Origin: an uncultured archaeon | GTDB taxonomy: Archaea; Thermoproteota; Nitrososphaeria; Nitrososphaerales; Gagatemarchaeaceae | Assembly: GCA_963817525.1 (NCBI GenBank) | Contig: CAWFOU010000007.1 | Location: 128,001-192,000 of the forward strand | Length of the DNA stretch: 64,000 bases | Direction of reading: 5' to 3' | Shown: positions 3,131 through 32,821 of the stretch, one piece after another | How the letters are laid out: each line of letters begins with the position of its first letter | How positions within the stretch are numbered: position 1 is the first letter of the stretch | Translations under genes and position numbers: made by a program | Notes under the pieces: generated by a model | Told to the model about the DNA's origin: nothing | Databases searched by the model: none | Seen by the model: the letters and a program-made list of their open reading frames with translations, nothing else

Positions 3131-3243
3131 GGGCCCGTAGCTCAGATCCCGTAGAGGAGAGAAGCCAGGATAGAGCATCGGGCTTTTAACCCGAGGGTCA
3201 GGTCTCGGAACCCCCTAGGCGGGTTCGAATCCCGTCGGGCCCG
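3131..3243 (+). tRNA. tRNA-Lys(TTT) with two non-canonical introns (3146-3164 at position 15/16; 3200-3218 at position 48/49)
   Basis: Removing both 19-nt inserts gives GGGCCCG TA GCTC AGCCAGGATA GAGC A TCGGG CT TTT AA CCCGA GGGTC GCGGG TTCGAAT CCCGT CGGGCCC G, a complete cloverleaf; both inserts fold as BHB-like motifs. Confidence 0.92.
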
Positions 3244-3712
3244 CCTCCGCTCGAGTCCGAATCCCTTCCTTGCTCTTCGACTGCGGTTCGGTAGGCTTGG
3301 GCATACGGAATGGAGTACGCTCCTCGAATATAAGCGCCAACCCCTAGGCGTTGCAGACATCTGAAACGATTTGAATTCTATCTACCGAAGTAGAGGTAGA
3401 AGATAACTTCTACCTATCATGTAAAAGGGGACGGAGAAATGGCAAAAAATGCTAGGCTTGCTTGCCGAGAGCAGGATTGGAGCTTTATTTTACCGTCAAA
3501 TCCGTCCGGAGCGGCAAGGTCCAAGGTCAGGGTGTGGGCCCAGACATCTTGGTTCAAAAATTCCAACATCAGCACATGAGAAACGGGTTGGCAGTCCGAA
3601 ACAATTTTGCTCGCCCAGTCAATTAATCCTTCTCCAAAAGCCTAATGGCGCTCGTTTTATGACACCGTGAACCTCATTGTCAAGCCGACTACTCTTGACG
3701 TACGCCCGACCT

Positions 3713-15854: not shown

Positions 15855-15867
15855 ACAGAGAAACACT

Positions 15868-16740: not shown

Positions 16741-16745
16741 GTCTC

Positions 16746-18079
16746 TTAGGCTGTCCTCAGCCCTATCACGGCCCTTCCGTCGGGCAGGTCCCGCTTGTAG
16801 TCCCACCCCTGCTCTATCCAGCGCTCGAGCTCCGCGACGGGCACGACCTTCTGCGTCCCCTCCTTCAGCCCGAGCATCTGCTTCGACTTTGCGTGGATGA
16901 GCTGCTGGAGCTGCTCCATCGTGATCCGGGTGATGTCGCCGACCCCCAAGAGCTCCTCGTCCGTGTAGCCGAACATCTTGAGCGCCTCGGTCCGCGCGGT
17001 GTTCACGACTTCGTCCCTGCTTATGCTCGCCTGGACCAGGGTCGCCAAGTGCTTCTCCGAGGCCTTTGCGTATGCCTGCCTCATACCCTCCAGCAGGTCC
17101 TCGGGGAGGTGTCCCTTGTTGAGCGTGTAGACATGCTCGATGTCCCCGGTGTGCCCCATCCAGAACACGCGGTAGTCCTTGATCACCTTTCCCTCCTGCT
17201 CGGCGCCCATCATCCTCGTGTCGAAGTACCTCCGCAGGACGTATGGCCTCCAGTCGAACCCCGCGGTCCTGATGGCGTGCCTTACCGCGTCGCATACGTT
17301 GCACACCCTCACGAACCTGCCGATGTAACGGGGGTTGAACTGGTTGGCCGTGAGCAACGGGGAGGCCCCGTCGATCTTCTCCTTCAGGATGTGCATCCTC
17401 CACTCCAGGTACTGCTTCACGTAGCCGCACCCCTGTTCGGGCAGGAAGGAGATGTACTGCCTCCCCGTCTTGGATATCGTCCTCCTGACGACCACAATGG
17501 CGGGCACCTTCAGGAACTCGACCTTCTCCTCTCCTGCGTCGCCCTTTCGTATGGTCATCTCGGGCAGGTCTGACACCCTCAGGCCGTCGTGTTCGCGTCC
17601 CTGTTCCCCAGCACCCCCGGCCTCACGCCGGAGAACGCCATGAGGGCGCAGGCGACCCTCTTCTGGAGGTCAGCGTGCTCGAAGATCGAGTGAAGCTCCT
17701 GGTGGGAGGGGACGCGCTCGTTGTCGTACACCCCCACGTCCCTGGCGAGCCTCACCTGCCTCGTCACCTCGAGGTCGTTGAAGCGCCACCACCCCTTCAG
17801 CTGCTTGACGCACCCGGCGATGGTCGAGCTCCTGTTGCCGTCGCTCTCCAGGCGGGAGACCACCCTGAACAGGAAGGCCCCGGCCTCTCCCTTGGACATG
17901 ACGGCCAGGTCCCTCTGCGTGACCTGGAGCAGCATGCAGACCCTCCCGACCCTGCGCAAGGTCACCTCGGCGTTCACCTTGCTCCCCCTCGCGATGTTCT
18001 CTATCCACGAGGCGAAGGCTTCATCTTCCAGCAGGTGTCTGTACTTGCTGTTCGGGAACAGCTGCGGCTTGGGGGTCAC
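16746..18079 (-). pseudogene. Tyrosine site-specific integrase, frameshifted near 17590
   Basis: ALMAFSGVRP (R) in 5' ORF; RPYVLRRYF, WMGHTGDIEHVY (R/H/Y) in 3' ORF; GAC GCG AAC AC GAC GGC CTG carries an apparent extra AC that breaks the frame before DGLRVSDLPE. Confidence 0.85.
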
Positions 18080-18138
18080 GCCATTCCGGGGAATTTCTCC
18101 TAATAACGGCGGGGCTTCGACTCGTGCGGGCAGGCGTA

Positions 18139-18151
18139 CCGTCGGGCCCGC
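18139..18151 (+). repeat. attR of the integrative element (copy of tRNA-Lys 3' end)
   Basis: CCGTCGGGCCCGC identical to 3232-3244, ~60 bp upstream of the integrase start. Confidence 0.85.
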
Positions 18152-18417
18152 TAATTAACCCCATTCTGAGCTTTGTTTCGTCAGAAGGGGCGGAATGCAG
18201 GGATGCGGCGTTGACCTAGACTGTTTCAGGGAATTGTCGAAGGTCGCCTTCGCGTCACCAAGATTGCGCCGGCGAGGACCAGTAGGCGGAGGCGCAATCA
18301 TCGTAAGGGACGGCGAGGTGCAGGCCGGACAACCTCCAGATTCAGGCGCAATCTTTCGCCAGATTCAAGCCTGAAATCGTCTCTCTTTGGGCGAGTTCTT
18401 TCTGATCCGTGGGTATA

Positions 18418-19119
18418 CTACCGAGGGGGTTCGACGACGAAGGTAACGTACACGTATTGATTCCAATCGTCCCAGGCCAGGATTGTGTACTCGCCGGGAG
18501 AGAAGGGCACGAGAGTCCCGCTACCGGTATCATAGTAGCCAACCAGCCCCGGATTCTCGCAGCCGCAAGTCTGCTGCCTGTAAGAGAGGATTGTGGTCAC
18601 GTTGAGCCGGCTGGGAACGAGCCCTGAGATCGTTCCGAAATCGGTTTCGTTTGCTTTTGTCTGCGAGGCGCCCGGAAAGAAGGTGACTTGCGTAGGGTCA
18701 GTGGGACCACCACAATAAAGGACCACGGGCACCGCCAGTTGCAAGGGCGACCCCGCCGATGAGATGTTCCCAGCTGTGAAGTGCCCTGGGAAGACTGCAT
18801 AGCCCATGAAGTCCCAAAAGCCGCAGACGCTGATGTAACTGATCCAAGTCGTGAGGTTCTGACTCTGAGCGACCGAGACCGAGAGTGTGACGTTTCGGTC
18901 CGACTTGTTCACCACCGTCACCCGCCCGGTGATCGACCCGTTGAATCTCATGGCCGTGGCATTCAGCGTCAGGTCCAGCTGTAGGCCTTTCGCCGAGACC
19001 GGCGAGGCGAAGACCAGGGGTCCTCCGCCCTGAGTGCTCGAAGGCAATGCGACCAGGCCCAAGACCCCTATGATAATCCCTGCCTGCACGACCCAGAATG
19101 CCCCCTCCTTGCGCTTCAT
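18418..19119 (-). CDS. Membrane-anchored extracellular protein (shares a domain with 20519-21802)
   Basis: N-terminal TM; GLQLDLTLNAT...GEYTILAWDDWNQ. Confidence 0.75.
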   Translation of the reverse strand: MKRKEGAFWVVQAGIIIGVLGLVALPSSTQGGGPLVFASPVSAKGLQLDLTLNATAMRFNGSITGRVTVVNKSDRNVTLSVSVAQSQNLTTWISYISVCGFWDFMGYAVFPGHFTAGNISSAGSPLQLAVPVVLYCGGPTDPTQVTFFPGASQTKANETDFGTISGLVPSRLNVTTILSYRQQTCGCENPGLVGYYDTGSGTLVPFSPGEYTILAWDDWNQYVYVTFVVEPPR

Positions 19120-19321
19120 TCGACTTTTGGAGGGGTCGGACTGCTATAACCCATGTGGAACGCTGGTCGCGTTCGAGGCATTCGTCGGATCCCCTCATCC
19201 CGAAAGAGTTTGGAGCGCTGCGGATCTTTCCTGATAGCTGGATAGCTCACCTCAGGTTTTAAGCTGCCCTAATGGCCGAAGGCGCCGAGGGCGCAACGCG
19301 CCTTCCAGTGCGGCGTCGCAC

Positions 19322-19960
19322 TTACGGGAATGCGAACTGAGCCAAGATTACTGTAGTGTTTGTTGGGGGTGGCTGATGGGGCGCACCGGTGTCTTCCGTC
19401 CAGCTGAAGTTGAGATTTACGGCGACGCTCCCTGGTTGCGCCAGTCGGTAAACGAATTGGTCACCGGAAGCGGGAGAGAATAGCGTGAAATTCTGGTCAT
19501 GACCCAGGTCGATCTCTGCAGCAACAATCCCGGGGCAATTGCAACCCTCTGTGAGGAGAGAGGGATTTGGAATGACGTTAGAGTTGAGGACATAGGATTC
19601 AAAGGATATCGTGGAGTTGCCGATGTTCTTGACGGTTACGAAGAACATCACGTCTCCGCCGTTGAAACCTGTCGCTTCGACGGAGAGCACCTGTAAGGTC
19701 CCGATCGGACCATAGGTGAACACGCCGCAGGTGATGTTTGCGAGGGCGTAGGAGGTGTTGTCAGGTGCGGAAGGGAAGGGGGAGATGCGACCGACGGGAC
19801 AGGCGCCAGTCATCAGGCTGGTCGATGTAATAGTGGAGGTGCTGACGGAGGTGACTGTCTCCGTTGCTCTGGTGCTGTTTCCGGACAAGTAGCCGATGCC
19901 GAGGCTCGCCACGAGCAAGATTACGACCATTACCCCGACCGCTTGTCTCCCCATTTTCAT
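19322..19960 (-). CDS. Membrane-anchored extracellular protein
   Basis: N-terminal TM, Thr/Ser linker, beta-rich domain with VTVKNIG and Cys pairs. Confidence 0.7.
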   Translation of the reverse strand: MKMGRQAVGVMVVILLVASLGIGYLSGNSTRATETVTSVSTSTITSTSLMTGACPVGRISPFPSAPDNTSYALANITCGVFTYGPIGTLQVLSVEATGFNGGDVMFFVTVKNIGNSTISFESYVLNSNVIPNPSLLTEGCNCPGIVAAEIDLGHDQNFTLFSPASGDQFVYRLAQPGSVAVNLNFSWTEDTGAPHQPPPTNTTVILAQFAFP

Positions 19961-19968
19961 TCTTTCGG

Positions 19969-20517
19969 TCAGCTCCAAGTGCCTTCGAAGTTGAAGTTCG
20001 TCTCGGTCCCAGCGGAGTAGGGGCCCACAGAATCTACAATCTTCGCTTGGAAGAGCCCTTCCGACGATGACCCGCTCGGCTCATGGGCGAGCTCTGTCGT
20101 GGGGAGAGCGCAGGTCGCGGCGACCTGCGAGTTCGCGGGTATGCCCGCTGCGGCGGGACCGCCAACCGTGCCGTTGAAGTTGTTGTCTGTGGTGACCGTT
20201 AGGGTTGCAGTGCCCGTGGAAGATTGGCTGGTGGTGATGTAGGTGACGCCAGTGTCGTTGACGCCTATGACCACCGACACTTGACAGTCCTCCAGCTGCA
20301 AAGGCGTAGTGCTATTATTCACGATTGTGCAGATGCCCGTCGCAAGAGAGCACGAGACATCTTTCGCTGACAGTTCCCCTATCAATGGCTCAAAGCATTT
20401 GGGACAGTATCCAGTAGTCAAACCTGTTCCCGGGACGAGATTGACGTATGCCACGTATCCGGATGCGACCAGAAGGAGCGCCAGAATTGACAAGGCGAGA
20501 GGGAGCTTTGATTTCAT
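19969..20517 (-). CDS. Membrane-anchored Cys/Thr-rich extracellular protein
   Basis: MKSKLPLALSILALLLVASG signal anchor; abuts both neighbours as in an operon. Confidence 0.7.
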   Translation of the reverse strand: MKSKLPLALSILALLLVASGYVAYVNLVPGTGLTTGYCPKCFEPLIGELSAKDVSCSLATGICTIVNNSTTPLQLEDCQVSVVIGVNDTGVTYITTSQSSTGTATLTVTTDNNFNGTVGGPAAAGIPANSQVAATCALPTTELAHEPSGSSSEGLFQAKIVDSVGPYSAGTETNFNFEGTWS

Positions 20518-20518
20518 C

Positions 20519-21802
20519 CTAACCTTCACTCTGGAATTGGACATCCACTGTTTCTGAGAACGTGGTGAACTGAGCGGCACTAACCAACGTCCCGTTGAGC
20601 ACAAGGGGATAGGTTACTCCGCTAGCGAAGCCCGCACCGATTAGCGTCGTGGTGAAGTGGACCGTCTGCGCTGGGAACAAGGGGCTGGACGTGCTGACGT
20701 TGAAGTTGGTCGAGTGCGGGCCAGGTGAATCTGCAGGGATGGTCGGGAAAGTGGCTGACAACGATGTTATCGTCATGTTTCCCACGTTCTTGAACGCGAA
20801 GGCGACCACCGGTCCGCCCGGATTGTAGGGCGGGATAGGACCTGTTACCGAAAGAACGTCAACTGGGCTTGGCGTCGGGGAGGCGTCGAAGTAAGCGTAA
20901 GCGGCCTGGTTCCAAATGTCTTCCGCGAGAATCGTGTATGAGCCGGCGGGGAAGGGCTGAAATACGTCGTTGAGGCCTTCAGCACAGATGTCGACGGCCA
21001 CCTGCGTCGGTGCGGCCGGACACACCTGAGTCGTCCGGATCGGCCAATAGCCATAGAGCATGGAGCCGGGGTGACATCCAAGGCCGAACTCCTTACCGCT
21101 GTATGATAGTCGAGTGCCGTTCTCTACGTTACTATAGGAACCCGAACCAGCAGTGGGAGCGCATGCCTCCGTGGCGGCGCTTGTCAGCATCTTGACTTGT
21201 GCCGGCTTGAACACGCCGCTCTCAGAAGTGTTGGCTAGGAGGGTGGCGACGTCGCTGTAAGGCGGGAGCTCGATCGTCTTGACGTAGTTTGCGGGATGGA
21301 CGTAGTTGGGGCACAAACTGGGTTCTGGTGGCCAGAGCAACAACGGCAGACCCGCCTCGGAGACGTTCGCCGCAGTGAGGTGCCCCTGAAACAACGCATA
21401 ATCGAAGATATGGTCGACCGAGCTGAAATCGCACTCACTGTTGTCGCCGTTCCAGACGGCGAGGTTCGGGTTGGCCGAAAAGTTCGCCGCGAGAGAGACG
21501 GTCGTTGGCAATGTGTTGACGAGGTCTATTTGGGCGGCAACAACCCCTCCTTGCGGGATCGTTGTGGCGTTCAGATCCACTCGCAGTTGCAGCCCCATCG
21601 GAGAGACTGCCGAAATGAAAGTTGTCGAAGAATTAACCTGCGTCTGATTTCCTGGTTCGGAAGTTATCGAGACGACTCCCATCAACGCGACCATCGACAC
21701 TATAATCGCGACGAAGAGGATGTGAGAATTGACCGCAGCGCTCCTTCCGGTCACTTCTCGAAAACTCCTCTTTGAAACTATCCGTGTCAAGGCCCACCGC
21801 AT
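20519..21802 (-). CDS. Membrane-anchored multidomain extracellular protein
   Basis: TM; GLQLRVDLNAT...GSYTILAEDIWNQ domain plus C-terminal Ig-like (FKNVGNMTITSL) domain. Confidence 0.75.
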   Translation of the reverse strand: MRWALTRIVSKRSFREVTGRSAAVNSHILFVAIIVSMVALMGVVSITSEPGNQTQVNSSTTFISAVSPMGLQLRVDLNATTIPQGGVVAAQIDLVNTLPTTVSLAANFSANPNLAVWNGDNSECDFSSVDHIFDYALFQGHLTAANVSEAGLPLLLWPPEPSLCPNYVHPANYVKTIELPPYSDVATLLANTSESGVFKPAQVKMLTSAATEACAPTAGSGSYSNVENGTRLSYSGKEFGLGCHPGSMLYGYWPIRTTQVCPAAPTQVAVDICAEGLNDVFQPFPAGSYTILAEDIWNQAAYAYFDASPTPSPVDVLSVTGPIPPYNPGGPVVAFAFKNVGNMTITSLSATFPTIPADSPGPHSTNFNVSTSSPLFPAQTVHFTTTLIGAGFASGVTYPLVLNGTLVSAAQFTTFSETVDVQFQSEG

Positions 21803-21982
21803 GGTGTTTCGCTAGAAGGTGGCTCTTGGATGTTGTGGAGGTATGTTCTCTGTCAGGCGAGTACTTTGGAATGAAATATTCGCGGCGCCCCGGGCGGGAT
21901 CTCCATCATCTGGTTAGAATCCCCATCACGAGGACCCAAATCATGTCAGTGCGGAAGCTCTTTCCTGGCAAATCCGACGTAG

Positions 21983-23665
21983 TTAGGGACACAGCTCCTC
22001 GGATGGGAGGGCCTCTTGGGCATTGAACACGTGGACGGCCGCGCAGCTTCCCGATTCCATGGGTGAATCCGATGCCACAGCCCAGACCGATCCTGCGCCC
22101 GAGGTCACAGCTATCCCCTGGACGTCATAGCTTGCCAGGACCGTGCCGTTGTCCCCGACGAGGTCGGTTCCTGAGGCATCCCCGCCGCTGAGAATCAATG
22201 CAGAACCATTATCAACAAAGCCCGCTGGAATACCAAGATTCGTGAAGTTCCAGAGGAGCTGGCCACCGGCGGTGAAGAGTTGGGCACCGTCTCCTATCGC
22301 TGCGACGTACGATCCGTCAGGTGAAATAGCGACCGGCTGCGCAGCCATGCCTTCTTGGTGCTTCCAGAGAAGCGCGCCGGTCGCACCGTCGAAGAGATAG
22401 ACACTGCCGTTCGAGTTCCCGGTATATACCGGCCCCCCCGCAACATAGGAGCCATTAGTGGACATCAGGACATTTGCGGTACCCGCGTTGTCTTCAGTGT
22501 AATTCCACACCTGATGTCCCTGTGAATTGAGACAGAAGACGCCCCAACCGAAGTTCGTCCAATTTCCTAGAAGCATGTCCTCCGCACTCACGACGACTGA
22601 GCCCCCGTCCCTCGACATTGCCAGATGAATGCTATTACCGCCACTTCTACTGGGAAAGGTGAAGTTCCAAAGGACGTCGCCGGCGGTGTTGAGGTAGATC
22701 ACGCCAGCTGTGTAATCTGCGGCTATCCGCGACCCATTTGCGGAAATGGCCACCTGGAAGATGGGATATCTGCCGGTGGAGACGTTCCACAGCATCTTCC
22801 CCTGCGTGTTGAAGAGGTAGACCTCCCCGTCACGGTAAGCGGACCAATAGCCACCTGCCGCCACATAGGAGCCGTTGCCCGAGACGGCGACGGTATCGAT
22901 GGCCGTGTTGTTTGTGACGTGCCTCCACGACTGCGTCTGTGAGCTCAACGAGACCAGATAGACAGACCCGTTCATGTCACTACCATCTTTGGTTCCTGCG
23001 GCCTAGTTTGAGTCCGCGCTGATGCTCAAGGCATCCACGGCCTGAGTCGCCGATGCCGCTGGGCCTGGTCCCCCGCTGCTCACCAGGTACTCCGCGCCGT
23101 AGCTGAGGAAATCCCATACCTCCTGCGAGATGAGCCAAGCGCCGCTCGAAGCGGAGTAGGCGAAAGAGTCCTCCGCGGAAATCGTGGCGCTGACATTACC
23201 CAAGACAGGGTCCTCCCCAACGAGAGCAAAGCTCGAGTTCACCGTCGCCAGGTCGTCGGAAACGACGACTTTCCCTAGAGTTACGTTCCCGATGGATATC
23301 GAGATGAATTTTCCTAGGAAAGATCCCATCAGGATGCGTATGTTGCCTGCGCCGGAGTAGTTGCCTGTGAGACCGGCTACCTGCCCCGCCCAAGTGACGG
23401 TCGCGTTGCTAGCGTATTGGCTGTCTATTGCGGACAGGTTCCTAGAGGAGAGCCATTGCATGTGATCGGCAAAGCTGCTCTCGACAATAGCGGTATCGAT
23501 ACCCGTCGATGTTTTCTTCAAATCTACCCCGGATGATGTTGAGCTCGATCCGAGCCGAGCCGGCAAGATTGCTATCGCGGTCAAAACCACCAGGGCAGCG
23601 ATGACTATCGCCGCTGCCACGACCTTGTAGCGTCCGATGCCGCGTGCAGGCGGATTCGTCACCAT
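21983..23665 (-). pseudogene. NTF2-like + PQQ/WD40 beta-propeller surface protein with in-frame TAG at 23003-23005
   Basis: ORFs 23003-23665 and 21983-22975 are in the same frame, joined by TAG + 9 codons (AAGTKDGSD); repeated blades VAVSGNGSYVAAG. Confidence 0.7.
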
Positions 23666-23761
23666 TGTGCTTCACGGGGAAGAAGCAAAAGGAGATTCGG
23701 TGACTAATACGTTTGTCCGAGTGTTTAGAGCGTGGTCGCAGGGATTTGAACAGTTGCGGTC

Positions 23762-23802
23762 GGATTCGCTTAATATTCTAAGCGACTCCCCTCGGGCCCG
23801 CC
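23762..23802 (+). repeat. att-like site, type A (11-6-11 palindrome + tRNA 3' end)
   Basis: GGATTCGCTTA ATATTC TAAGCGACTCC CCTCGGGCCCGCC. Confidence 0.8.
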
Positions 23803-23851
23803 TTGATTCGAACCCACCCGGGTTCGAATCCCCCGCGTTCCTTCCTGCGAT

Positions 23852-23939
23852 TCTGTCAGCTTAAGGGACATGAAAGCCCTCCTGATTACAGTTGCATAAA
23901 TGCTACGATGAGAAATTCCATGTCCCTTGAGCTAACAGA
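23852..23939. repeat. 88-bp element with 24-bp imperfect terminal inverted repeats (MITE-like or hairpin)
   Basis: TCTGTCAGCTTAAGGGACATGAAA ... TTCCATGTCCCTTGAGCTAACAGA (3 mismatches). Confidence 0.65.
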
Positions 23940-23985
23940 GTGCTTCTTGCATATCGTTAAATATCATATAGCCAAGATTTAACCA

Positions 23986-24225
23986 ATGGAAAGTCGGCTC
24001 CTCAAGAGGATCGTCGTCGACCCGAGAATAATGGTCGGCAAGCCAGTGATTAGAGGGACCAGAATTCCTGTCGACACAATCATCCATAGGATTGCTCAGG
24101 GGGGCACCATCAAGGAGCTCCTAGAAGACTACCCAAAGATAACGCGGTTAGATGTGAAGGCGGCGCTAGAATACGCGGAGAGCCTTGTGCGGGGCGAAGA
24201 CGTTTTGCCGCAAATAAAGAGCTAG
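23986..24225 (+). CDS. DUF433 antitoxin
   Basis: RIVVDPRIMVGKPVIRGTRIPV...DYP...DVKAALEYA. Confidence 0.92.
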   Translation: MESRLLKRIVVDPRIMVGKPVIRGTRIPVDTIIHRIAQGGTIKELLEDYPKITRLDVKAALEYAESLVRGEDVLPQIKS

Positions 24226-24226
24226 C

Positions 24227-24583
24227 ATGCGCTTCCTTGTGGACGAGAGCACAGGAAGGAAGATCTGCGAACTCCTTGGCGCGGCTGGTCACGACACGAC
24301 GTTCGTCGGCGACTCGATGCCAGGCTCCGCGGACGAAGCCGTCCTCGCCTTGGCGGATAGCGAAAGGAGAATCTTAATCACTGATGACAAGGATTTTGGC
24401 GAGCTCATTTTCAGACTCGATAGGCCCACGACAGGGGTCATTCTGTTAAGGCTCTCGACGGCAAACTCTCGGAGACGAGTAAGAATTCTTCTTGATGTCA
24501 TCAAGAGCTTGCAGCTCGAGGGAAGTTTCACGACGGTCACGGACAACGGAATCAAGACACGAAGGTTGCGCTCCAGAGGGTAG
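24227..24583 (+). CDS. DUF5615 PIN-like toxin
   Basis: MRFLVDES...GHD...DEAVL...RILITDDKDFGEL. Confidence 0.92.
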   Translation: MRFLVDESTGRKICELLGAAGHDTTFVGDSMPGSADEAVLALADSERRILITDDKDFGELIFRLDRPTTGVILLRLSTANSRRRVRILLDVIKSLQLEGSFTTVTDNGIKTRRLRSRG

Positions 24584-24626
24584 GCGGCAAGCCCTTCGTC
24601 GAAGATTCTATCTTCCAACTTGACCG

Positions 24627-24676
24627 GGAATCCACTTTGAGAACCCGTTCAGGGGCGGGTCCCGTCGGGCCCGCCT
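24627..24676 (+). repeat. att-like site, type B (conserved ~35-bp leader + tRNA 3' end)
   Basis: GGAATCCACTTTGAGAACCCGTTCAGGGGCGGG TCCCGTCGGGCCCGCCT; last 17 bp identical to 3230-3246; followed by a type-A palindrome at 24678-24705. Confidence 0.85.
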
Positions 24677-25085
24677 TAGATTCGCTTGAGATGTTAAGCG
24701 AATCCAACTAAACTTGCTTAGAGTCCCAGGCGAAATCCATTTAGCGTAAGTACTTCCATCGCCCTCGGGTTCGAAGCCAAGGGATCGATTCTGCCGGCCC
24801 GTCGATTCCTGCGAGCAAAATTCAAAGGATCAACTTGATTCTACGGGCATTCGATGCTAAGAAGGATTCGCATAGATTCCCCCCAAGTGTTCTTGCTTCG
24901 ATGGCCCACGGGTTTCTCGTCGTCCGGCTCGACTTCCTGAGGAGGGAAATTACATTCGCCCTCTGATCGAGAGGCGGCCCTCTCTGCCGCTTGGCGTGCA
25001 TCTACGACCCTAATTTCAAGTTCGCCTTCAGCGTTGAACAGACACAACGGCTTTATGACGCGGCTCTTCGATTAATCGAGAAGTA

Positions 25086-27041
25086 ATGTCCCAGGGCGTA
25101 CGGAGACTTGCGGCTATAATGTTCACGGACATGGTGGGCTTCACAGCTCTGGGCCAACGGAATGAACAACTTTCCATTGCCCTGGTTGACGAACAAAGGA
25201 AACTGCTGAGGCCAATCTTCACCAGACATAACGGTAGAGAGGTCAAGACTATGGGAGATGCCTTCCTCGTTGAATTTCCAAGCGCACTGGATGCCGTGAG
25301 GTGTGGGTACGACATCCAAAGAGCCACCAGAGAATTCAATGTCTCGTTACCAAGCGAGAAGAGGGTACACCTGAGAGTCGGGGTTCACCTTGGGGACGTT
25401 GTGGAGTCTCAGGGGGACATTTCGGGCGATGCGGTAAACTTGGCATCGCGAATAGAGCCCTTGGCAGAAGATGATGGTGTGTGCATTACCCGTCAGGTCT
25501 ACGACCACGTCAAGAATAAGTTCGAGCTCCCATTGGCAAGCCTCGGGAGCAAATCCCTAAGGAGCATCGCCGAGCCGTTGGAAGTTTACAAGATGATAAT
25601 GCCGTGGGAAGAACGGAATGCCTCACAATCAGAACACTTCGACAGGAAAAGAATTGCAATCTTACCCTTTGCTAACATAAGCCAGGGTGACAACGACGAG
25701 TACTTCGCAGACGGCATGACAGAGGAGCTGATCTCCACACTATCTAGAATCGGAGGTCTGAAAGTCATTTCCCGCACTTCCGTGATGCGATACAAGGCCT
25801 CGGGCAAGAGCGTGAGCGAAATTGCCAAGGAGCTAGGAGTAGGGACGATCCTGGAGGGAAGCGTCAGGATGGCTGGCGGCCACCTGAGGGTCTCGGCCGA
25901 GCTCATAGATGCGGGAAGAGACGAGCATCTCTGGTCACAAGACTACGACAGGGATTTGGAAGACGTGTTCAAGATTCAGACGGAGATCGCCCAGAGAGTT
26001 GCTGAGGCACTGAGAATAGAGCTTCTTTCGGTCGAAAGAGAGGACATTGAACGCCGGGTGACCGAAAGCCCTCAGGCTCATAAGCTCTATCTGAGGGGGC
26101 GTCACTATTGGAACGAAAGGACCAAGGATAGCGTCGATAAAGCTGTAAAATACTTCGAGGAGGCCATCAAGCTGGATTCCAAATACGCGCTCGTCTATGC
26201 CGGGCTTGCTCGTTGCTACATCCTCTACGGTGCATGGGGCTTCATGAGACCGAATGATTCATTTCCCAAGGCCAAAAGGTACGCAATAAAGTCCATAGAG
26301 ATCGACCCGAGGTTGGCTGAGCCGCATACCATCTTTGCCGACGTCCTCAATGATTACGAAGGGCGCTGGGTGGAGTCGGAGCTAGAATACAGGCGGGCAT
26401 TGGAGCTCAATCCTAGCTACGCTACGGCACACATGTGGTATGGGCTCTTGTTAGTATTCTTGACAAGGTTTGACGAGGCTCGCGACCATATCAGGCTAGC
26501 CATCGAGCTTGATCCGCTCACCCATGTCGGTGCATTGAATCTTGCTGGAGTGTCACTCTATGAGGGAAGACCGCGAGACGCCGTAGAACAGATTGAAAAT
26601 GCAATTGAGGGAGACCCCGAATTCGCCCCCAACCACAATGCTCTCGCTTGGGCATACTGCCTTGACTCAAGAACCGACGAAGGGATCAGCGAGATGAGGA
26701 AGGCATTGGCAATGTCTGGCGAACCTATTGATAAAGCGGACTTGGCCTGCCTACTAGGCTTCTCCGGTCGAACGGAGGAGGCCCGCAGTATACTCAAAGA
26801 AATCAAAGAGACTTCGAAGGTTACCTATGTCTCCAAGATGAAGATTGCGCAAGTCTTGTTTGCCTTGGGAAATTACGATGAGGCATTCAAGCTCCTCGAA
26901 GAGGCGAGGGAAGATCATTCGCTCTTCACCCAACACGGGAGCTATCTCCTTGACATGAGATTGCTTCCTTTGTTCGCTCCGGTGCGAGAGGACAGAAGGT
27001 GGCAGACGTTTGTAGCAACCTTAAAGATCCCAGAAGCCTAG
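25086..27041 (+). CDS. Class III adenylate/guanylate cyclase-like + TolB-like + TPR protein
   Basis: RRLAAIMFTDMVGFT, KTMGDAFL, GDAVNLASRIE, IAILPFANIS...YFADGMTEELI, TPR repeats. Confidence 0.92.
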   Translation: MSQGVRRLAAIMFTDMVGFTALGQRNEQLSIALVDEQRKLLRPIFTRHNGREVKTMGDAFLVEFPSALDAVRCGYDIQRATREFNVSLPSEKRVHLRVGVHLGDVVESQGDISGDAVNLASRIEPLAEDDGVCITRQVYDHVKNKFELPLASLGSKSLRSIAEPLEVYKMIMPWEERNASQSEHFDRKRIAILPFANISQGDNDEYFADGMTEELISTLSRIGGLKVISRTSVMRYKASGKSVSEIAKELGVGTILEGSVRMAGGHLRVSAELIDAGRDEHLWSQDYDRDLEDVFKIQTEIAQRVAEALRIELLSVEREDIERRVTESPQAHKLYLRGRHYWNERTKDSVDKAVKYFEEAIKLDSKYALVYAGLARCYILYGAWGFMRPNDSFPKAKRYAIKSIEIDPRLAEPHTIFADVLNDYEGRWVESELEYRRALELNPSYATAHMWYGLLLVFLTRFDEARDHIRLAIELDPLTHVGALNLAGVSLYEGRPRDAVEQIENAIEGDPEFAPNHNALAWAYCLDSRTDEGISEMRKALAMSGEPIDKADLACLLGFSGRTEEARSILKEIKETSKVTYVSKMKIAQVLFALGNYDEAFKLLEEAREDHSLFTQHGSYLLDMRLLPLFAPVREDRRWQTFVATLKIPEA

Positions 27042-27079
27042 TTTTTTCGGCTCTCGGTCTCGAGACCTGTCCTGCAGCA

Positions 27080-27118
27080 GGGTTCGCTTGGAACATTAGG
27101 CAATCCCATCGGACCCGC
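27080..27118 (+). repeat. att-like site, type A (degenerate)
   Basis: GGGTTCGCTTG GAACAT TAGGCAATCC CATCGGACCCGC. Confidence 0.7.
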
Positions 27119-27489
27119 TAGCTTATCCAAACACGCTTCACCTCGGTGAAGTGCGGGTCATCTGTGACACAAGAGACGCGCAGACTCTTCGACGTTGCCA
27201 TGATCAACGAATCAGCCATGGGAACTCGCAGTCTATGGCTTATCCTAGCTCCCTCCTCCGCTATCCCGGCGCTCACATCGACTATGGTATACTCGTTTGC
27301 AATCGTGCGGGTGCGCAGCTCGGCAACCGTCTTGTCATCGTGTTCAATGGTCTGTTTGTATATCTCGTAAATGCTGATTGATGACGCGAACGGAGTCTTT
27401 GCCTTCTCGAAGATCGCCTTGAGCTTCCTGGTTATCTCCGCGTCCTTTGAAGTGAAGACGGCCCAGAAATACCTGGTCTCGAAGAGCAT
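27118..27489 (-). CDS. vapC: VapC-type PIN toxin
   Basis: MLFETRYF...SIYEIY...MADSLIMAT...VTDDPHF. Confidence 0.88.
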   Translation of the reverse strand: MLFETRYFWAVFTSKDAEITRKLKAIFEKAKTPFASSISIYEIYKQTIEHDDKTVAELRTRTIANEYTIVDVSAGIAEEGARISHRLRVPMADSLIMATSKSLRVSCVTDDPHFTEVKRVWIS

Positions 27490-27492
27490 GAG

Positions 27493-27717
27493 TCACCCCT
27501 CAGATGAGCGCATCTCGTCAAGCAGTCGGAAGGACTCCTCGGTGGACAGCTTGCTCTTTCCTGCAAGGTCGAAGATTGATGGAATTTTTGTGAGTACTAC
27601 CTTGTCCCCTTCCGTGTCGACCATTAGCCTTGTTCCCTCCTGTATTCCGAGTTTCTTTCTTATGGATATAGGTATCGTCGTCTGCCCTCGCCTGGTGACA
27701 ACAACCTCTTGAGCCAT
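27493..27717 (-). CDS. vapB: AbrB/MazE-type antitoxin (VapB)
   Basis: VTRRGQTTIPISIRKKLGIQEG; directly upstream of the PIN gene. Confidence 0.88.
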   Translation of the reverse strand: MAQEVVVTRRGQTTIPISIRKKLGIQEGTRLMVDTEGDKVVLTKIPSIFDLAGKSKLSTEESFRLLDEMRSSEG

Positions 27718-27840
27718 GAGAGTGGCACGAATTCCTACTATAAAGCAATTCCTACCGCCGTAGGATTCCTATCTGCCCCGTCAGTCAGCTTAGGCGGGCT
27801 GGCGCATAGGTTCCTAAGCGGGCTTCTCCGATGCGACCAA

Positions 27841-27889
27841 GGGAATCCGCTTTCAGAACCTGTTCAGGGGCGGACCCCGTCAGGCCCGC
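27841..27889 (+). repeat. att-like site, type B
   Basis: GGGAATCCGCTTTCAGAACCTGTTCAGGGGCGGACCCCGTCAGGCCCGC. Confidence 0.85.
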
Positions 27890-28018
27890 TAATGATAAGC
27901 TCAATTTGAACTCTTTTTGAGTATGGCGAACATATTTGTGCCATTCCAGCGATTGTCGAAGCTAATCCGTCTGAATCGAACCCCTAAATATCGTCACCCA
28001 CTACTTACGCCTCGCGTC

Positions 28019-28414
28019 TTGAACGACAAGAAGGGAACGGGACCTGGCCAAGTCAGCGAGTCTGAACTTGCTGATCGAATATTCTCGTTCGACGACGCCA
28101 TCATGTTCTGCGTGATTATGAGCTCCGACGGGGACGTTCACGTGATACGGTCGCAGCCGGGAAGCGGGAGCCTGGTACGGAATAAGGGCGACGTCGAAAT
28201 GCTAGCCAAGCGGTGGGCTATCGTCAGGGGGATAGACGACACGGCAGACAAGTTGTTGGGACAGTCGCGTAGCGCAATAATCCTTCGCGACAAGATTACA
28301 TTGATGAGCATAAACGCGCCCGGCGGAAGGTGCGCGTTCGTCGGGGCACGCCCGGACGTCGATATTCGAAAGGTAAGAGAGATGGAAGAGGCAGTCGCCC
28401 TACTCAGCCCATAA
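28019..28414 (+). CDS. Small roadblock/profilin-like protein (DUF6659-like)
   Basis: ADRIFSFDDAIMFCVIMSSDG...LLGQSRSAIILRDKITLMSI pattern; start TTG 28019 inferred. Confidence 0.55.
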   Translation: MNDKKGTGPGQVSESELADRIFSFDDAIMFCVIMSSDGDVHVIRSQPGSGSLVRNKGDVEMLAKRWAIVRGIDDTADKLLGQSRSAIILRDKITLMSINAPGGRCAFVGARPDVDIRKVREMEEAVALLSP

Positions 28415-28463
28415 CTGGCGAGGCTGGAGGTCAGCTCCCAGGGGGGGGCGCGGCGTCGCGCTT

Positions 28464-28506
28464 GAATCCGTTGAAAAACCGTTCGGAGGCGGCCCCGTAG
28501 GTCAGC
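28464..28506 (+). repeat. att-like site, type B (degenerate)
   Basis: GAATCCGTTGAAAAACCGTTCGGAGGCGGCCCCGTAGGTCAGC. Confidence 0.55.
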
Positions 28507-28577
28507 TGCCCTTCGCGAGGGTTGGATTCGAACTTCGAGTGCACGGCAACCCTATCGCGCAAGAGTCCTCTTGAGGA

Positions 28578-29438
28578 CTATAGGATATTCAGGTCGCTAG
28601 CTGCGTAATAAGAAGGAACCAACGGGCGAAATCCGAGACTTCTGATTTTTTCAGTGTTAAGGAGGCCGCTCCACGGGTTTATCAAAGGAGTCGCCGGGTC
28701 TGCCAGCTTCGCGGTCTGACCCGCCAGGCGGATGACCTCTTGTAGAGTAATCGGCGAGTCATCGGCGACGTTGCATATCTCGCCCCCCATGGCAGAGACG
28801 CCCAATGCCAGCTTCACGGCTTGCGCAACATCCAAATGGTGCAAAAGATGCAACCTATACGCCGGATGACGGGCCCACCGCTCAAAGAGCGGAATCGATT
28901 CTGGTAGATGCGGGTCACCGGCGCCGTAAACGAAGCTGAAGCGCAGGATGCTTACGTCAAGTTGTCTCGCCGCGTGCATGCCAAGCAAGAGTTTCTCCGA
29001 AGCCACTTTGCTCGAGGGATAGGCAGCCGTTGGACTGACGTGGTCGCTTTCTATGGCAGGCGCGGCGTCATTGCTGTAGACCGTGCTTGTGCTTGAAAAG
29101 ACAAAGCGAACCTCTGGGTTGATTTGGGAAGCCGCTCCGGCTATGTTTTTCGTGCCGGTCTCGTTTATGCTTTTGATCTTATCAGCGTCTTCGCTGCGAA
29201 GACTGCGAAAGAAAGCCGCAAGGTGCACGATTGCATCGACCCCGACAAGGGCTTCTTGCAGGCTCTCAGGCTGCATGATGTCGCCGACGAAGGTCTCTGC
29301 CCCTTTGGCTTTGAGCTTCCCCGCGGTTTCGTCATCGGTTCTTCGGACAAGTATTCGTACGGAATGACCGCCGGTGAGCAGAGACGGAACTAATCTGCTT
29401 CCTACTTTTCCAGTTGATCCCGTTACCAGGACGTTCAT
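28578..29438 (-). CDS. NAD-dependent epimerase/dehydratase family protein
   Basis: VLVTGSTGKVG, IVHLAA, YPSSK. Confidence 0.9.
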   Translation of the reverse strand: MNVLVTGSTGKVGSRLVPSLLTGGHSVRILVRRTDDETAGKLKAKGAETFVGDIMQPESLQEALVGVDAIVHLAAFFRSLRSEDADKIKSINETGTKNIAGAASQINPEVRFVFSSTSTVYSNDAAPAIESDHVSPTAAYPSSKVASEKLLLGMHAARQLDVSILRFSFVYGAGDPHLPESIPLFERWARHPAYRLHLLHHLDVAQAVKLALGVSAMGGEICNVADDSPITLQEVIRLAGQTAKLADPATPLINPWSGLLNTEKIRSLGFRPLVPSYYAASDLNIL

Positions 29439-29540
29439 TTTCTAGACTGCGAGGTAGTCGACGCGCCTATAAGAATGCTTTGTATAAAGTAAATTGGTAT
29501 AAAGTAATTAGATATAGAGGCGGGCAACCAACCGCCCCGC

Positions 29541-29984
29541 GTGGAAGCCAGTCCGAACGCCGGATCTCTTGGCCACTGGGTGAAGATGATAAACCATGAC
29601 GCGACCATCAAGGGGAACCGCCTCCTCAAACCATTCGGTCTGACTCAGAGCGCCTGGTACGTCCTCTATCAGGTCAACCAAGCGGAACGGATCTCCCAGA
29701 AGAAGCTTCAGGGGACCCTAAGAATAGAGTCCGGAAGCATGGCGATGATCGTGGATAGTCTCGTCCGAAAAGGGTGGCTCGAAAGAACCTCCAGCGAGAA
29801 AGATCGCCGAGCCAATTATCTCAAGCTCACCCCCAAGGGCGCCGCTCGGTGGAAGACAGTTCCGGACGTAGCATCTGTCTTACGAAAGGAAATGATGCGG
29901 GGCATCTCGGAGGCGGAGGAGAAAGCCGGCATAGCGGTACTGAAGAAGTGTTGGGCTAACCTGGAGAAGGCGACCGCTGTCTAA
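29541..29984 (+). CDS. MarR-family regulator
   Basis: GLTQSAWYVL...VDSLVRKGWLER...DRRANYLKLTPKG; divergent from the epimerase. Confidence 0.9.
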   Translation: MEASPNAGSLGHWVKMINHDATIKGNRLLKPFGLTQSAWYVLYQVNQAERISQKKLQGTLRIESGSMAMIVDSLVRKGWLERTSSEKDRRANYLKLTPKGAARWKTVPDVASVLRKEMMRGISEAEEKAGIAVLKKCWANLEKATAV

Positions 29985-30011
29985 CAGAAAGAGTCCGCGA
30001 ATCAATTCATC

Positions 30012-30051
30012 GGATCCGCCTAGAGGATTAAACGCATCCCGTGGGGCCCGC
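30012..30051 (+). repeat. att-like site, type A
   Basis: GGATCCGCCTA GAGGAT TAAACGCATCC CGTGGGGCCCGC. Confidence 0.75.
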
Positions 30052-30095
30052 TCCCATTACGGTTAATACACAGACCCCACCCAGTCACGGGCGTC

Positions 30096-30926
30096 TTGCC
30101 CACGATTAAGACGAAAGATGGGACTCAGATTTACTACAAGGACTGGGGGACGGGACAGCCTGTCGTCTTCAGCCACGGTTGGCCGCTCAGCGCCGACGCG
30201 TGGGAAGACCAGATGCTCTTCCTGGGCTCGCGCGGATATCGTTGCATAGCGCACGACCGCCGCGGTCATGGGCGCTCCGACCAGCCCTGGAACGGCAACG
30301 ACATGGACACCTACGCTGACGACCTTGCCGACCTTGTCAAGCATCTCGACCTCAAGGGCGCCGTTCACGTTGGTCACTCGACCGGGGGCGGCGAGGTCGC
30401 GCGCTACATTGGGCGGCATGGGACGAAGCGCGTCGCCAAGGCCGTTCTCATCGGGGCAGTGCCACCCATAATGGTGAAGACGCCGTCCAACCCTGGCGGC
30501 CTGCCTATCGAGACGTTCGACCAGATCCGCGCGGGAGTCCTGGCAGACCGCTCGCAGTTCTGGAAGGACCTGTCGATGCCGTTCTACGGCGCCAATCGCC
30601 CCAACTCCAAGGTGTCGCAAGGCCTGCGAGACTCGTTCTGGCTCCAGGGGATGTGGGCAAGCCACAAGGCGGTCTACGACTGCATCAAGCAGTTCTCCGA
30701 GACGGATTTCACCGAAGACCTCAAGAAGATCGACGTGCCGACGCTAGTCCTCCACGGGGACGACGACCAGATAGTGCCCATTGCGGACTCGGCGTTGCTG
30801 ACAGCCAAGATAGTTAGGAAGGCCACTCTGAAGGTGATCCCCGGAGCGCCCCACGGCATGTGCTCGACCCTCAAGGACACCATCAACGCAGAGCTGCTGG
30901 CGTTCCTGAAGCAAGGCCTTTCATGA
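30096..30926 (+). CDS. cpo: Non-heme chloroperoxidase / perhydrolase (alpha/beta hydrolase)
   Basis: [50 protein letters not shown]. Confidence 0.92.
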
Positions 30927-31016
30927 GCTCCCGAGACCGCTGAATCCCGAGCGGCTACGTTCCGATCCTTGGCAGGGCCGCCTCCTTATTATTATCAAGA
31001 CCTATCTCGGACAATC

Positions 31017-31868
31017 ATGACAGACTCGACGCAGAGCTTCTGGCCCAACGATGCACGGCTCGTCATCTCGGTTTCCATGCAGTTTGAAACCGGATCTCAA
31101 CCCGACCGTGGAGCCGCGAGCCCCTTTCCGCCTCTTGATCCCAAGTACCCTGACCTGCCCGCGCAAAAGTGGTACGACTATGGCTTCAAGGAAGGCATCC
31201 CCAGGCTCCTCGACCTGTGGGACCGGGTCGGCATCAAGGTGACGTCTCACATGGTCGGCCGAGCCGTCGAAAGACACCCTGAACTTGCGAAGGAGATCGT
31301 CGATCGAGGCCACGAGGCGGCCGGCCACGGTCAGACCTGGGAGCCGCAGTACTCCATGACCTCCGAGCAGGAGCGCGCCGGGTATCAGGCCAGCGTCGAC
31401 ACGATCCGGAGGGTGACGGGCACACGCCCGGTCGGTTTCAACGCGTTCTGGCTTCGCGGCACTACGAGCACCCTGGGAATCCTCCAAGACCTGGGCTTCA
31501 TCTACCACATCGATGACGTCAGCCGAGACGAGCCCTTCACGGTGACCGTGAAGGGGAAGCCCTTCGCCGTCGTGCCCTACACGATTCGCAACAATGACAT
31601 CGTGCGTTTTGATTCGCCGGCGATGACGAACGCCGCTTACCTGCAGGACGTTAAGGATGATTTTGATGTCCTCTACGCAGAGGCGGCCTCCCGCCGCCGG
31701 ATGATGTCGATCAGCACGCACGACCGGATCTCCGGCATCCCAGGACGAGTGAAAGTGCTGGAGGAGTTCATCAGGTATGCCCAAGGACGTGACGACGTCG
31801 TGTTCATGCGGAAGGACGAGATCGCAAGGTGGATCTTGTCGGCTTCCGACGCGCCTCGCGAAGAGTGA
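31017..31868 (+). CDS. Polysaccharide deacetylase family (PuuE-like) protein
   Basis: FWPNDARLVISVSMQFE, YGFKEGIPRLLDL, GHEAAGHG, MMSISTHDRISG. Confidence 0.88.
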   Translation: MTDSTQSFWPNDARLVISVSMQFETGSQPDRGAASPFPPLDPKYPDLPAQKWYDYGFKEGIPRLLDLWDRVGIKVTSHMVGRAVERHPELAKEIVDRGHEAAGHGQTWEPQYSMTSEQERAGYQASVDTIRRVTGTRPVGFNAFWLRGTTSTLGILQDLGFIYHIDDVSRDEPFTVTVKGKPFAVVPYTIRNNDIVRFDSPAMTNAAYLQDVKDDFDVLYAEAASRRRMMSISTHDRISGIPGRVKVLEEFIRYAQGRDDVVFMRKDEIARWILSASDAPREE

Positions 31869-31901
31869 GCCGACCGGCCACCCATTGAGCGAGAGATTTT
31901 C

Positions 31902-31949
31902 GGAGTCCATTTGCAGAACCCGTTAAGGGGCAGACCCCGTCGGTCCCGC
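31902..31949 (+). repeat. att-like site, type B
   Basis: GGAGTCCATTTGCAGAACCCGTTAAGGGGCAGACCCCGTCGGTCCCGC. Confidence 0.8.
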
Positions 31950-32032
31950 TGCCAATACTTGCCTGGAAGTATTGGATAGAGTTATGTTTCCGTCGAGGTG
32001 GCGTCTCGGGTCGAGAAGGGGTTGGTAAGAAA

Positions 32033-32821
32033 TTGGGCATGCTAGAAGGCAAGACTGCGGTGGTCTACGGGGCGGCAGGGGGCATTGGGAGCGCCACGGC
32101 AAAGGCATTCGCAAGGGAGGGCGCGTTTGTCTTCCTTGCCGGCAGAACGCTGAAGTCGCTTGAATCGGTCGAAGCCCAAATTCGCGGGTCGGGAGGACTC
32201 GCCGAGAGCGGGGTCGTCGATGCCCTTGACGAGCAATCGGTCGAGGACAATCTGTCGAAGTTGGTCAGAGACCGTGACGGGCTAGACGTGTCGTACAATC
32301 TGATGTCGACCAACGTGGAGATGGGCGGGAGATTGGCAGAACTATCTGAGAAGCGGTTCTCCAAAGCCGCGTTCGACAGGGTCAGGTCGAATTTCGTCAC
32401 CGCTACCGCCGCCGCGAGGGTCATGCAGAAACAAGGGGGCGGTGTCGTGATTGGACTGACGGCTAGCACCGGCAGATTTCCCCAGGCGGACACCGGTGGC
32501 TTCTCAGTAGGGTGCGCCGCAATCGAGACACTTCTCAAACAGCTCGCCGTCGAGGTGGGCCCGTCGGGGGTCAGGGTCGTCTGCTTGAGGACGGGGGCCA
32601 CACCGGAGAACCCTGTGCTGCAGCAGGTATACCAGCGGCTGGCCGAAGTAAGGGGAACGACAAAGGAAGTTGTGGAGAGAGCCGAAGCGGAGCACACCGC
32701 CCTGAAGCGCTCTCCGCGCATAGCAGAGGTCGCCAACGCCGCCGTGCTCGTCGCATCAGATTACGCTAGCGCCATCACGGCGACCCCCGTGAATGCATCG
32801 TGTGGGGAGCTCGTGGATTAG
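32033..32821 (+). CDS. Short-chain dehydrogenase/reductase (atypical)
   Basis: AVVYGAAGGIG; GFSVGCAAI replaces YxxxK. Confidence 0.85.
   Translation: MGMLEGKTAVVYGAAGGIGSATAKAFAREGAFVFLAGRTLKSLESVEAQIRGSGGLAESGVVDALDEQSVEDNLSKLVRDRDGLDVSYNLMSTNVEMGGRLAELSEKRFSKAAFDRVRSNFVTATAAARVMQKQGGGVVIGLTASTGRFPQADTGGFSVGCAAIETLLKQLAVEVGPSGVRVVCLRTGATPENPVLQQVYQRLAEVRGTTKEVVERAEAEHTALKRSPRIAEVANAAVLVASDYASAITATPVNASCGELVD

Follow-up and report, generated by a model that had tools for sequence, protein, structure and literature searches.

What are the 28-bp palindromes, two 11-nt arms around a 6-nt spacer, that recur among small groups of genes in the genome of an uncultured archaeon of the Gagatemarchaeaceae? 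We analysed them in a 64,000-nt stretch of this genome (GenBank contig CAWFOU010000007.1, positions 128,001 to 192,000; the window), in the rest of the genome carrying it (G000, with contigs labelled C1, C7 and C8; assembly contamination 8.75%) and in relatives (their genomes carry the other G labels and their loci L labels). An initial annotation had called the palindromes type A sites, interpreted them as recombinase core sites with Xer/dif-like geometry, possibly of an archaeal counterpart of pdif modules, and proposed that they be counted genome-wide and compared with the host XerA. We consider it probable, at roughly 70%, that the type A palindromes are instead the element-side attachment-site arms of integrative modules that target tRNA 3' ends, and that these modules form an integron-like array.

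The four main palindromes were read directly in the window as GGATTCGCTTA-ATATTC-TAAGCGACTCC at 23762, AGATTCGCTTG-AGATGT-TAAGCGAATCC at 24678, GGGTTCGCTTG-GAACAT-TAGGCAATCC at 27080 and GGATCCGCCTA-GAGGAT-TAAACGCATCC at 30012, with the sequences and positions initially annotated. A 22-nt consensus (two arms) with a 6-nt spacer was used to count such sites. G000 contained 5, 8, 11 and 11 sites at up to 2, 3, 4 and 5 mismatches, compared to means of 0, 0, 0 and 0.7 in 30 Markov-1 simulated genomes; as the count at up to 4 mismatches (11 vs. 0 in the 30 simulations) is far above the simulations, the type A family is real and not a chance product. The geometry alone is unremarkable, since the window holds 22 generic 11-6-11 inverted repeats at up to 2 mismatches, and only 23762, 23804 and 24678 of the six sites initially annotated are among them. 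The 11-6-11 layout that characterises dif sites was found at 23762, 24678 and 30012 with 1, 2 and 3 mismatches respectively (only the first two within the limit of 2), and the right arm of 27080 has 10 nt. A loose pattern, CNNNGGNCCCGC, was not enriched in the window (11 occurrences vs. 6.0 expected; 6 of 100 shuffles reached 11). Two further sites had been listed as a variant and as a weaker example. The variant (TGATTCGAACC-N6-GGTTCGAATCC, 23804..23831, plus strand) is an inverted repeat with one mismatch that folds as a hairpin, while the weaker site at 27798 did not survive: by inspection it has 5 of 11 complementary positions, it is missing from its G009 counterpart, and it gave no match at E ≤ 1 to the site model described below. 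The possibility that the sites are minus-strand tRNA genes or tRNA halves was discarded (no acceptor pairing, a 6-nt loop, no Rfam match).

A covariance model (R1) was built from 13 sites and searched in G000 and then in 41 genomes (E ≤ 0.1). There were 13 strong matches in G000, and the family was detected in 29 of the 41 genomes, including 19/22 in the genus and 21/24 in the taxonomic family; outside the taxonomic family the matches were weak only (best E 0.015 to 0.075). Conservation was analysed in 40 R1 matches (38 distinct sites, 26 sources). It was strongest in the left arm, GGATTCGCTTAA (mean 1.75 bits vs. 1.30 bits in the right arm across the 38 distinct sites); conservation falls on the G+C-rich outer arm and variation on the AT-rich centre. 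The earlier description of conserved arms and a varying spacer consequently applies to the left arm and to the spacer, but not to the right arm. The proportion of paired cells was 84.3% in the real alignment and 84.4% in shuffled ones (319 of 500 shuffles at least as high), and both sides had changed in only 2 of 415 cells, indicating that compensatory changes do not preserve the hairpin. The drift of the right arm is uncompensated, and the arms are not co-conserved. Type A matches cluster in arrays, with up to about 11 cores per 10 kb in G009, G012, G003, G020, G021, G022, G008 and G023. There is also a second kind of site, type B, in which GGGAATCCACTTTGAGAACCCGTTCAGGGGCGGG is joined to a tRNA end. 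Within each of the two types the modules begin at a sharp 5' boundary that they have in common, with unrelated cargo next to it. A conserved composite of approximately 90 nt was also observed in five genomes; it consists of a core, CAACTTTTCACGCTCAAC...GAAGAGCCGAATTC and an inverted type A site whose right arm merges into GGGCCC (G000 C8:72540-72655; L043 11208-11300; L044 7199-7291; L047 1933-2020; L042 10477-10569).

The right arms of 23762, 27080 and 30012 continue into C-N3-GG(G/A)CCCGC. This tail, of the form C-N3-GGGCCCGC, has the same spacing as the stretch from the T-loop to the 3' end of a tRNA-Lys(UUU) gene in the window (3131..3246, plus strand), where CGAATCC-CGT-CGGGCCC-G-CC represents T-loop, T-stem 3' strand and acceptor 3' strand, spaced like right arm plus tail. 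The proposal that the right arm runs into tRNA T-stem and acceptor sequence is thus confirmed at these three sites. The tRNA-Lys gene harbours two non-canonical introns (3146-3166 and 3200-3218), one in the D-loop and one before the T-stem, and is likely the original target of the island (attB/attL). In the unedited window ARAGORN found no tRNA and Rfam gave nothing at the gathering threshold; after in-silico removal of both introns, ARAGORN called 3131-3246 tRNA-Lys(ttt). The gene is 85% identical to the G009 copy, and its 3' part is itself an 11-6-11 inverted repeat, at 3218 (GGCGGGTTCGA-ATCCCG-TCGGGCCCGCC). In the region 23000-32500, Rfam gave nothing at E ≤ 10. Introns seem to be present in many G000 tRNAs. 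A conserved trailer of approximately 40 nt, CCGCTCGAGTCCRAAYCC...GCTCTTCGA, was observed 3' of the tRNA-Lys gene (window 3247-3290), and it is found as well after a tRNA gene at C7:1220146-1220185, at the last type A site of the C1 array (approximately C1:1150450-1150490) and in G009 (L012), after the type A site with a tRNA-Lys end that is described below.

Three different tRNAs were recognised in the tails. CGTC-GGGCCCGCC is the end of tRNA-Lys, TGCC-GGGCCCGCC-A the end of an Arg-like tRNA at C7:1220085, and CTTC-CGGCCC-A the end of a tRNA-Ile at C7:1045843. Because the same palindrome is fused to other tRNA ends elsewhere, the left part is portable as a module, with a tail that depends on which tRNA is targeted. 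The units are bounded by direct copies of the target tRNA 3' end, as is characteristic of tRNA-targeting attachment sites; one G000 block of 5.8 kb, for instance, extends from the tRNA-Ile and an integrase fragment (C7:1046003-1046323) to a type A site with a tRNA-Ile end (C7:1051704).

Comparison with relatives located the breakpoints between units. In G009, which belongs to the same genus, the tRNA-Lys gene is followed by 2.4 kb, a type A site with a tRNA-Lys end and then the sequence that forms the 3' flank of tRNA-Lys in the window (91.5% over 118 nt); judging from this arrangement, the G009 site behaves as an attR. G009 shares window positions 12722-18177 at 92-97% identity (vs. 74-84% for core genes), and the shared block ends at a tRNA-end copy (18126-18151). 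After this core, the order in G009 is a cassette with a 165-aa open reading frame (ORF), a type B site, a PIN-MazE cassette, a type B site and a hydrolase block, while in G000 it is a 5.6-kb block, a DUF433 pair, a cyclase, PIN-MazE, the 165-aa cassette, an epimerase/MarR cassette and the hydrolase block. Homology between both genomes switches exactly 3' of GGGCCCGCT at every junction; homology to G009 begins right after the type A site at 27080, and that of the alpha/beta-hydrolase block begins at 30038. Similarly, G000 C1:1153345-1157345 is 100% identical to G012 C5 (L043 1-4001) along 4001 nt that include the integrase; inside the core this identity breaks off, the cassettes that come next differ, and the distal flank is 87.7% identical. 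Cassettes therefore differ in presence and order, with breakpoints at the repeats, in both comparisons (G000 vs. G009 and G000 C1 vs. G012). The earlier interpretation was right in kind, because these are recombination sites bounding mobile modules, as indicated by the breakpoints in G000, G009 and G012 and by an adjacent tyrosine recombinase family; it was probably wrong in placing the core in the palindrome.

The homology breaks set the right-hand limit of exchange just after GGGCCCGC(C/T). The tRNA-Lys of G009 has a compensated T7:A66 pair, but the attR copy has C at position 66; if A66 is native, exchange would have occurred to the right of position 66, within GGGCCCGCC. We infer that the exchange point lies in the tRNA-derived GGGCCCGC(C/T), at least 4 bp outside the palindrome. 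A symmetric model, CGAATC-N5-GGGCCC-N5-GATTCG, fitted by inspection only 2 of the 8 window junctions and was kept as a lead only. An empty tRNA-Lys site was not found in G007, G015 or G021, where only the hydrolase coding region is common and synteny at tRNA-Lys is lost.

The integrase-proximal tRNA 3'-end copy (18126..18151, plus strand; repeat families D9 and D16), an attI-like or attR core, lies 77 nt from the reading frame of a frameshifted, divergent tyrosine integrase gene (16746..18079, minus strand; N part 17579-18079, C part 16746-17576). This core is conserved in G009, with a different cassette next to it, and its layout beside the integrase recurs in G012 and in G046, a genome of another genus. 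The window gene has a 2-nt insertion near 17590 relative to G009 and is 77-78% identical, in two frames, to an intact paralogue (G000 C1:1153427-1154740; tblastn). The family was found by tblastn with a 429-aa ORF whose start lies 47 nt beyond a type A site at C7:691824. Its members have 430-440 aa and share 26% identity and the C-terminal tail with a PF00589-positive recombinase; their alignment has invariant R, K, R, H and Y columns, and a nine-member profile matches the XerA structures 4a8e (E 4.6e-8) and 5hxy (E 1.5e-6). PF00589 itself was found at 7 places in G000, none of them in the window, and Pfam recognised no family in the N-terminal ORF of the window integrase and none at E ≤ 0.01 in the full-length paralogue. 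There are 13 matches of the family in G000 (4 full length), and it is present in 16 of 27 genomes of the taxonomic family. Copies lie 47-100 nt from tRNA genes or tRNA-end copies, and some members stand directly after tRNA genes (C7:1001 kb and the tRNA-Lys of G059). The succession of integrase, core and cassettes that defines the integron layout was observed in the window, at G000 C1:1150490-1154746, in G012 and in G046, and toxin-antitoxin genes are abundant in the cargo of the loci outside the window too. Two other integrases were considered as candidates and rejected: a 410-aa protein (C7:688953-690185) is not consistently near type A sites in relatives, and the single SSV-type match (C1:965538) is far from any site.

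The array lies downstream of the intron-bearing tRNA-Lys and of the frameshifted integrase gene. Its first block (18152-23803, 5.6 kb) ends in type A site 1 (23762..23803, plus strand; palindrome 23762-23789 plus tRNA-end tail; R1 54.7 bits). The next cassette starts with the hairpin at 23804, carries a DUF433 plus DUF5615 (PIN-like) toxin-antitoxin pair (23986..24583, plus strand; Pfam E 3.9e-24 and 2.3e-20) and ends in a type B site (24626..24677, plus strand; repeat family D3), copies of which are found elsewhere in G000 and in relatives. Directly 3' of this site is type A site 2 (24678..24705, minus strand; R1 40.9 bits on that strand), which is inverted, has no tail on the plus strand and has in common with the preceding type B site the GGCGGGCCCGCC core, itself a perfect palindrome. 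An adenylate/guanylate cyclase-TPR gene (25086..27041, plus strand; Pfam) follows, and its cassette ends in type A site 3 (27080..27119, plus strand; R1 40.1 bits), with a degenerate tRNA-end tail. The PIN plus MazE/AbrB toxin-antitoxin cassette (genes at 27118..27717, minus strand; Pfam) is 82% identical to a G009 cassette at a different array position and ends in a type B site (27841..27890, plus strand). The 165-aa ORF cassette (27917..28507, plus strand; no Pfam match) has a degenerate B-type site at approximately 28463-28507 and is 83% identical to the G009 cassette that stands first after the integrase there. The NAD-dependent epimerase (minus strand) and MarR regulator (plus strand) cargo (28578..29984; Pfam) ends in type A site 4 with its tRNA-end tail (30012..30052, plus strand; R1 47.2 bits), and a further type B site (31901..31950, plus strand; repeat family D3) stands after alpha/beta-hydrolase and deacetylase genes. 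Type A sites alternate with type B sites, and the cassettes contain one or two genes with the sites at their 3' ends. Paralogues of the cyclase-TPR gene adjoin type A sites in G000 (including C7:1052109-1054067), G003, G020 and G021, making this gene a recurrent cargo.

These observations suggest the following mechanism. Type A sites would resemble attP or attR and serve as attC in the array. Each would combine a portable conserved arm (GGATTCGCTTAA, about 6 variable bases and the T-loop-like TAAGCGAATCC) with 13-20 bp copied from the target tRNA (T-stem and acceptor 3' strand), and the tRNA-derived GGGCCCGC(C/T), rather than the palindrome's 6-bp spacer, would be the place of strand exchange. 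The probable catalyst is a dedicated tyrosine integrase of about 430-440 aa, of which the frameshifted copy 16746-18079 stands beside the first tRNA-end copy; an intact paralogue elsewhere in G000 could act in trans. The family described here would thus be the enzyme acting on the sites, and this enzyme may bind the left arm together with the inverted CGAATCC motif as an accessory element or half-site. A row of 0.6-5.6 kb cassettes without integrases of their own, each ending in a type A or type B site, would arise as units repeatedly integrate at the common core, are excised and integrate again. The perfect palindrome of the GGCGGGCCCGCC core may explain why genes lie on either strand and why the type A site at 24678 is inverted.

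Several observations weigh against this reading. Binding of a protein by the palindrome or the left arm is a proposal, and the conservation could have another cause. The window integrase and its G009 orthologue are both frameshifted, at different places, and none of the 11 top type A loci in relatives lies within 1.5 kb of an integrase of the family, so that the assignment of the enzyme is based on an association at a minority of sites. The mapping of the crossover depends on one compensated base pair and on breakpoints that give a right-hand limit only. Neither an excision product nor an empty junction was seen: the low-depth contigs of 4 soil runs contained no joints, and loose ends at 23765 and 23802 in those contigs stem from a paralogous site on C8. 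Finally, the 100% block shared by G000 and G012 could partly reflect one population binned into two assemblies; recent transfer could be the alternative to split binning.

A related but more specific proposal is that of a dedicated cassette-capture system convergent with integrons, composed of an integrase related to XerA, an attI-like core, attC-like arms A and B and a palindromic GGGCCC overlap. We regard this as a tentative possibility, somewhat short of an even chance. Here the integrase would bind type A sites at a pair of positions, the left arm and the T-loop-like right arm, and the palindromic overlap would permit insertion in either orientation, which would account for the genes on both strands and for the inversion at 24678. 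The array resembles integrons in several respects: an integrase beside the first site is followed by a row of small cassettes, these end in a conserved, imperfect palindrome-bearing site, their cargo is rich in toxin-antitoxin genes, and the sites are more similar within a lineage than the cargo is. It also differs from them. No IntI was found in a search with TIGR02249 (best 34.4 bits vs. a cut-off of 265), a tRNA 3' end serves as the core, both strands carry cassette genes, and exchange appears to fall outside the hairpin. By inspection the outer ends of the sites have none of the R''/L''/L'/R' boxes of attC, and the junctions read GGGCCCGC(C/T)|N, with no GTTRRRY. Canonical integrons have been described in Archaea (PMC9668308).

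The sites might also be inert scars, left by decayed tandem integrations at tRNA-Lys, with types A and B as leftovers of attP arms or integrase leaders and the palindrome as a by-product of T-loop mimicry. The frameshifts in both orthologous integrase copies and the soil-run contigs without joints are in line with this, type B resembles the leader between core and integrase start, and tandem arrays at one attachment site are known for elements with tyrosine recombinases (PMC6563490). Against decay, the left arm retains 1.75 bits per position in the 38 distinct sites, which come from many genomes of at least 3 genera, and the A and B modules keep their sharp common 5' boundaries beside unrelated cargo. 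Moreover, close relatives have different cassettes and different orders of them, so that units without an integrase must have moved recently. We judge the scars unlikely.

The Xer/dif interpretation of the initial annotation states that the 11-6-11 palindrome is the core, that the host XerA cleaves at the edges of the spacer and that the modules are the archaeal counterpart of pdif. In a dif site a 6-nt spacer separates two inverted repeats of 11 nt each, and the DNA is cut at either end of the spacer (PMC8371274, PMC2958812). The geometry of 23762, 24678 and 30012 agrees with this, and the closest solved relatives of the integrase family are archaeal XerA proteins. However, the proposed comparison with the host XerA found no such protein: with the NF040815 equivalog model (cut-off 220 bits), none of 23 genomes of the genus was over the cut-off, 6 of the 23 had no match at E ≤ 1e-5, and the best G000 recombinase reached 76.6 bits. 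The spacers are unlike at every site and unlike the tRNA target, whereas partner sites should share their spacer; the right arm drifts uncompensated; the homology breakpoints, as far as the genome comparisons locate them, are outside the palindrome; and the site is present 13 times per genome, joined to various tRNA ends. The analogy with dif and pdif is therefore abandoned, and this interpretation appears highly improbable.

Equally little credit is given to the sites as expression signals, either hairpin terminators or insulators at cassette 3' ends or, through their AT-rich centre, TATA-like promoters. The distance from the cyclase stop to 27080 is 39 nt and that from the MarR stop to 30012 is 28 nt, and the regions 23725-23830 and 24620-24720 fold better than shuffles (z -3.8 and -4.4). 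By contrast, the regions of 27080 and 30012 show no folding advantage over shuffles (z -1.03 and +1.13), the hairpin lacks a T-run on its 3' side, 23762 is on the 5' side of a divergent gene, covariation is absent, and the conserved part is the G+C-rich outer arm, the AT-rich centre being the variable one. Recognition of the hairpin as folded single-stranded DNA, as in integron attC sites or IS200/IS605 ends, would suit a cassette array that adjoins an integrase and imperfect palindromes with a variable loop, but it is scarcely credible given the lack of an IntI match, the failure to find a Y1 transposase (which makes IS200-type ends unlikely), an exchange point that seems to lie outside the hairpin and compensatory change in 2 of 415 cells only.

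The attachment-arm reading is best appreciated beside the systems that it approaches. CIMEs are cis-mobilizable elements of the ICESt1/ICESt3 type that have no integrase and are moved in trans, and pdif modules are units bounded by Xer recombination sites. Williams, in 2002, is said to have described symmetric tRNA stem-loops as integrase core sites. Our array resembles tandem accretion at tRNA genes and CIMEs in that direct copies of a tRNA 3' end bound the units, integrase-less units stand beside integrase-bearing ones and the cores are short. It departs from them in that the units are mostly 0.6-2.4 kb with 1-2 genes, and in that two conserved arms of about 30-50 nt (A or B) are common to unrelated cargo. 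It also forms rows of up to about 11 cores in 10 kb, none of which is reported in the available part of PMC6563490. That study describes thaumarchaeal elements integrated at tRNA 3' ends, the tandem reuse of one site and attachment cores that are short in Thaumarchaeota (median 17 bp). With dif and pdif the array shares the 28-bp 11-6-11 layout, modules bounded by recombination sites and an integrase family distantly like XerA, but the genus has no XerA equivalog, and the unequal conservation of the arms, the unshared spacers, the outside crossover and the fused tRNA ends set it apart. As with tRNA stem-loop cores, the 3' part of tRNA-Lys is an 11-6-11 inverted repeat and the sites copy its region from T-loop to acceptor; the element side, however, adds a second, inverted T-loop motif (GGATTCG...CGAATCC), for which no description was found in the accessible text of PMC6563490. 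The array belongs to neither the Xer/dif nor the IntI-integron class. Neither the arms nor the arrays were found described in the available parts of PMC6563490, PMC9668308 and PMC8371274 or in literature searches, and in a genomics paper on the family (PMC10640624) the terms integrase, mobile genetic, toxin and genomic island have 0 mentions each.

Other mobile or repeated features were observed around the array. A 444-aa ORF (window 11325-12659, minus strand) has no Pfam match and has copies of 99.5-100% identity at C8:15378-16667 and C1:1164558-1165848; this is probably an insertion sequence that is active and has a transposase of an undescribed type. Three tandem 35-bp units of repeat family D2 (window 14742-14869) lie inside the block shared with G009, and each holds a small palindrome, TAATGC.C..CCCT.G..CATTA. 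Upstream of the window, approximately 37 kb (G000 C7:66000-103100) are missing from the syntenic region of G009. This segment encodes a 418-aa recombinase (C7:101975-103228); it also contains two long copies of the tRNA-Lys end, at C7:84060 and 89910, and an integrase fragment adjoins each of them.

For annotation, an integrase family on which Pfam is silent and a searchable site model mark genomic islands in the taxonomic family. If the attachment-arm reading is true, small-cassette gene capture can operate independently of IntI and attC, a tRNA-site integrase and a short portable arm being sufficient. It would form a simple testable system of one integrase, a core of about 15 bp and two arm types, and would provide a concrete mechanism for the acquisition and reshuffling of accessory genes (toxin-antitoxin pairs, signalling cyclases and regulators, for example) in these little-studied soil archaea.

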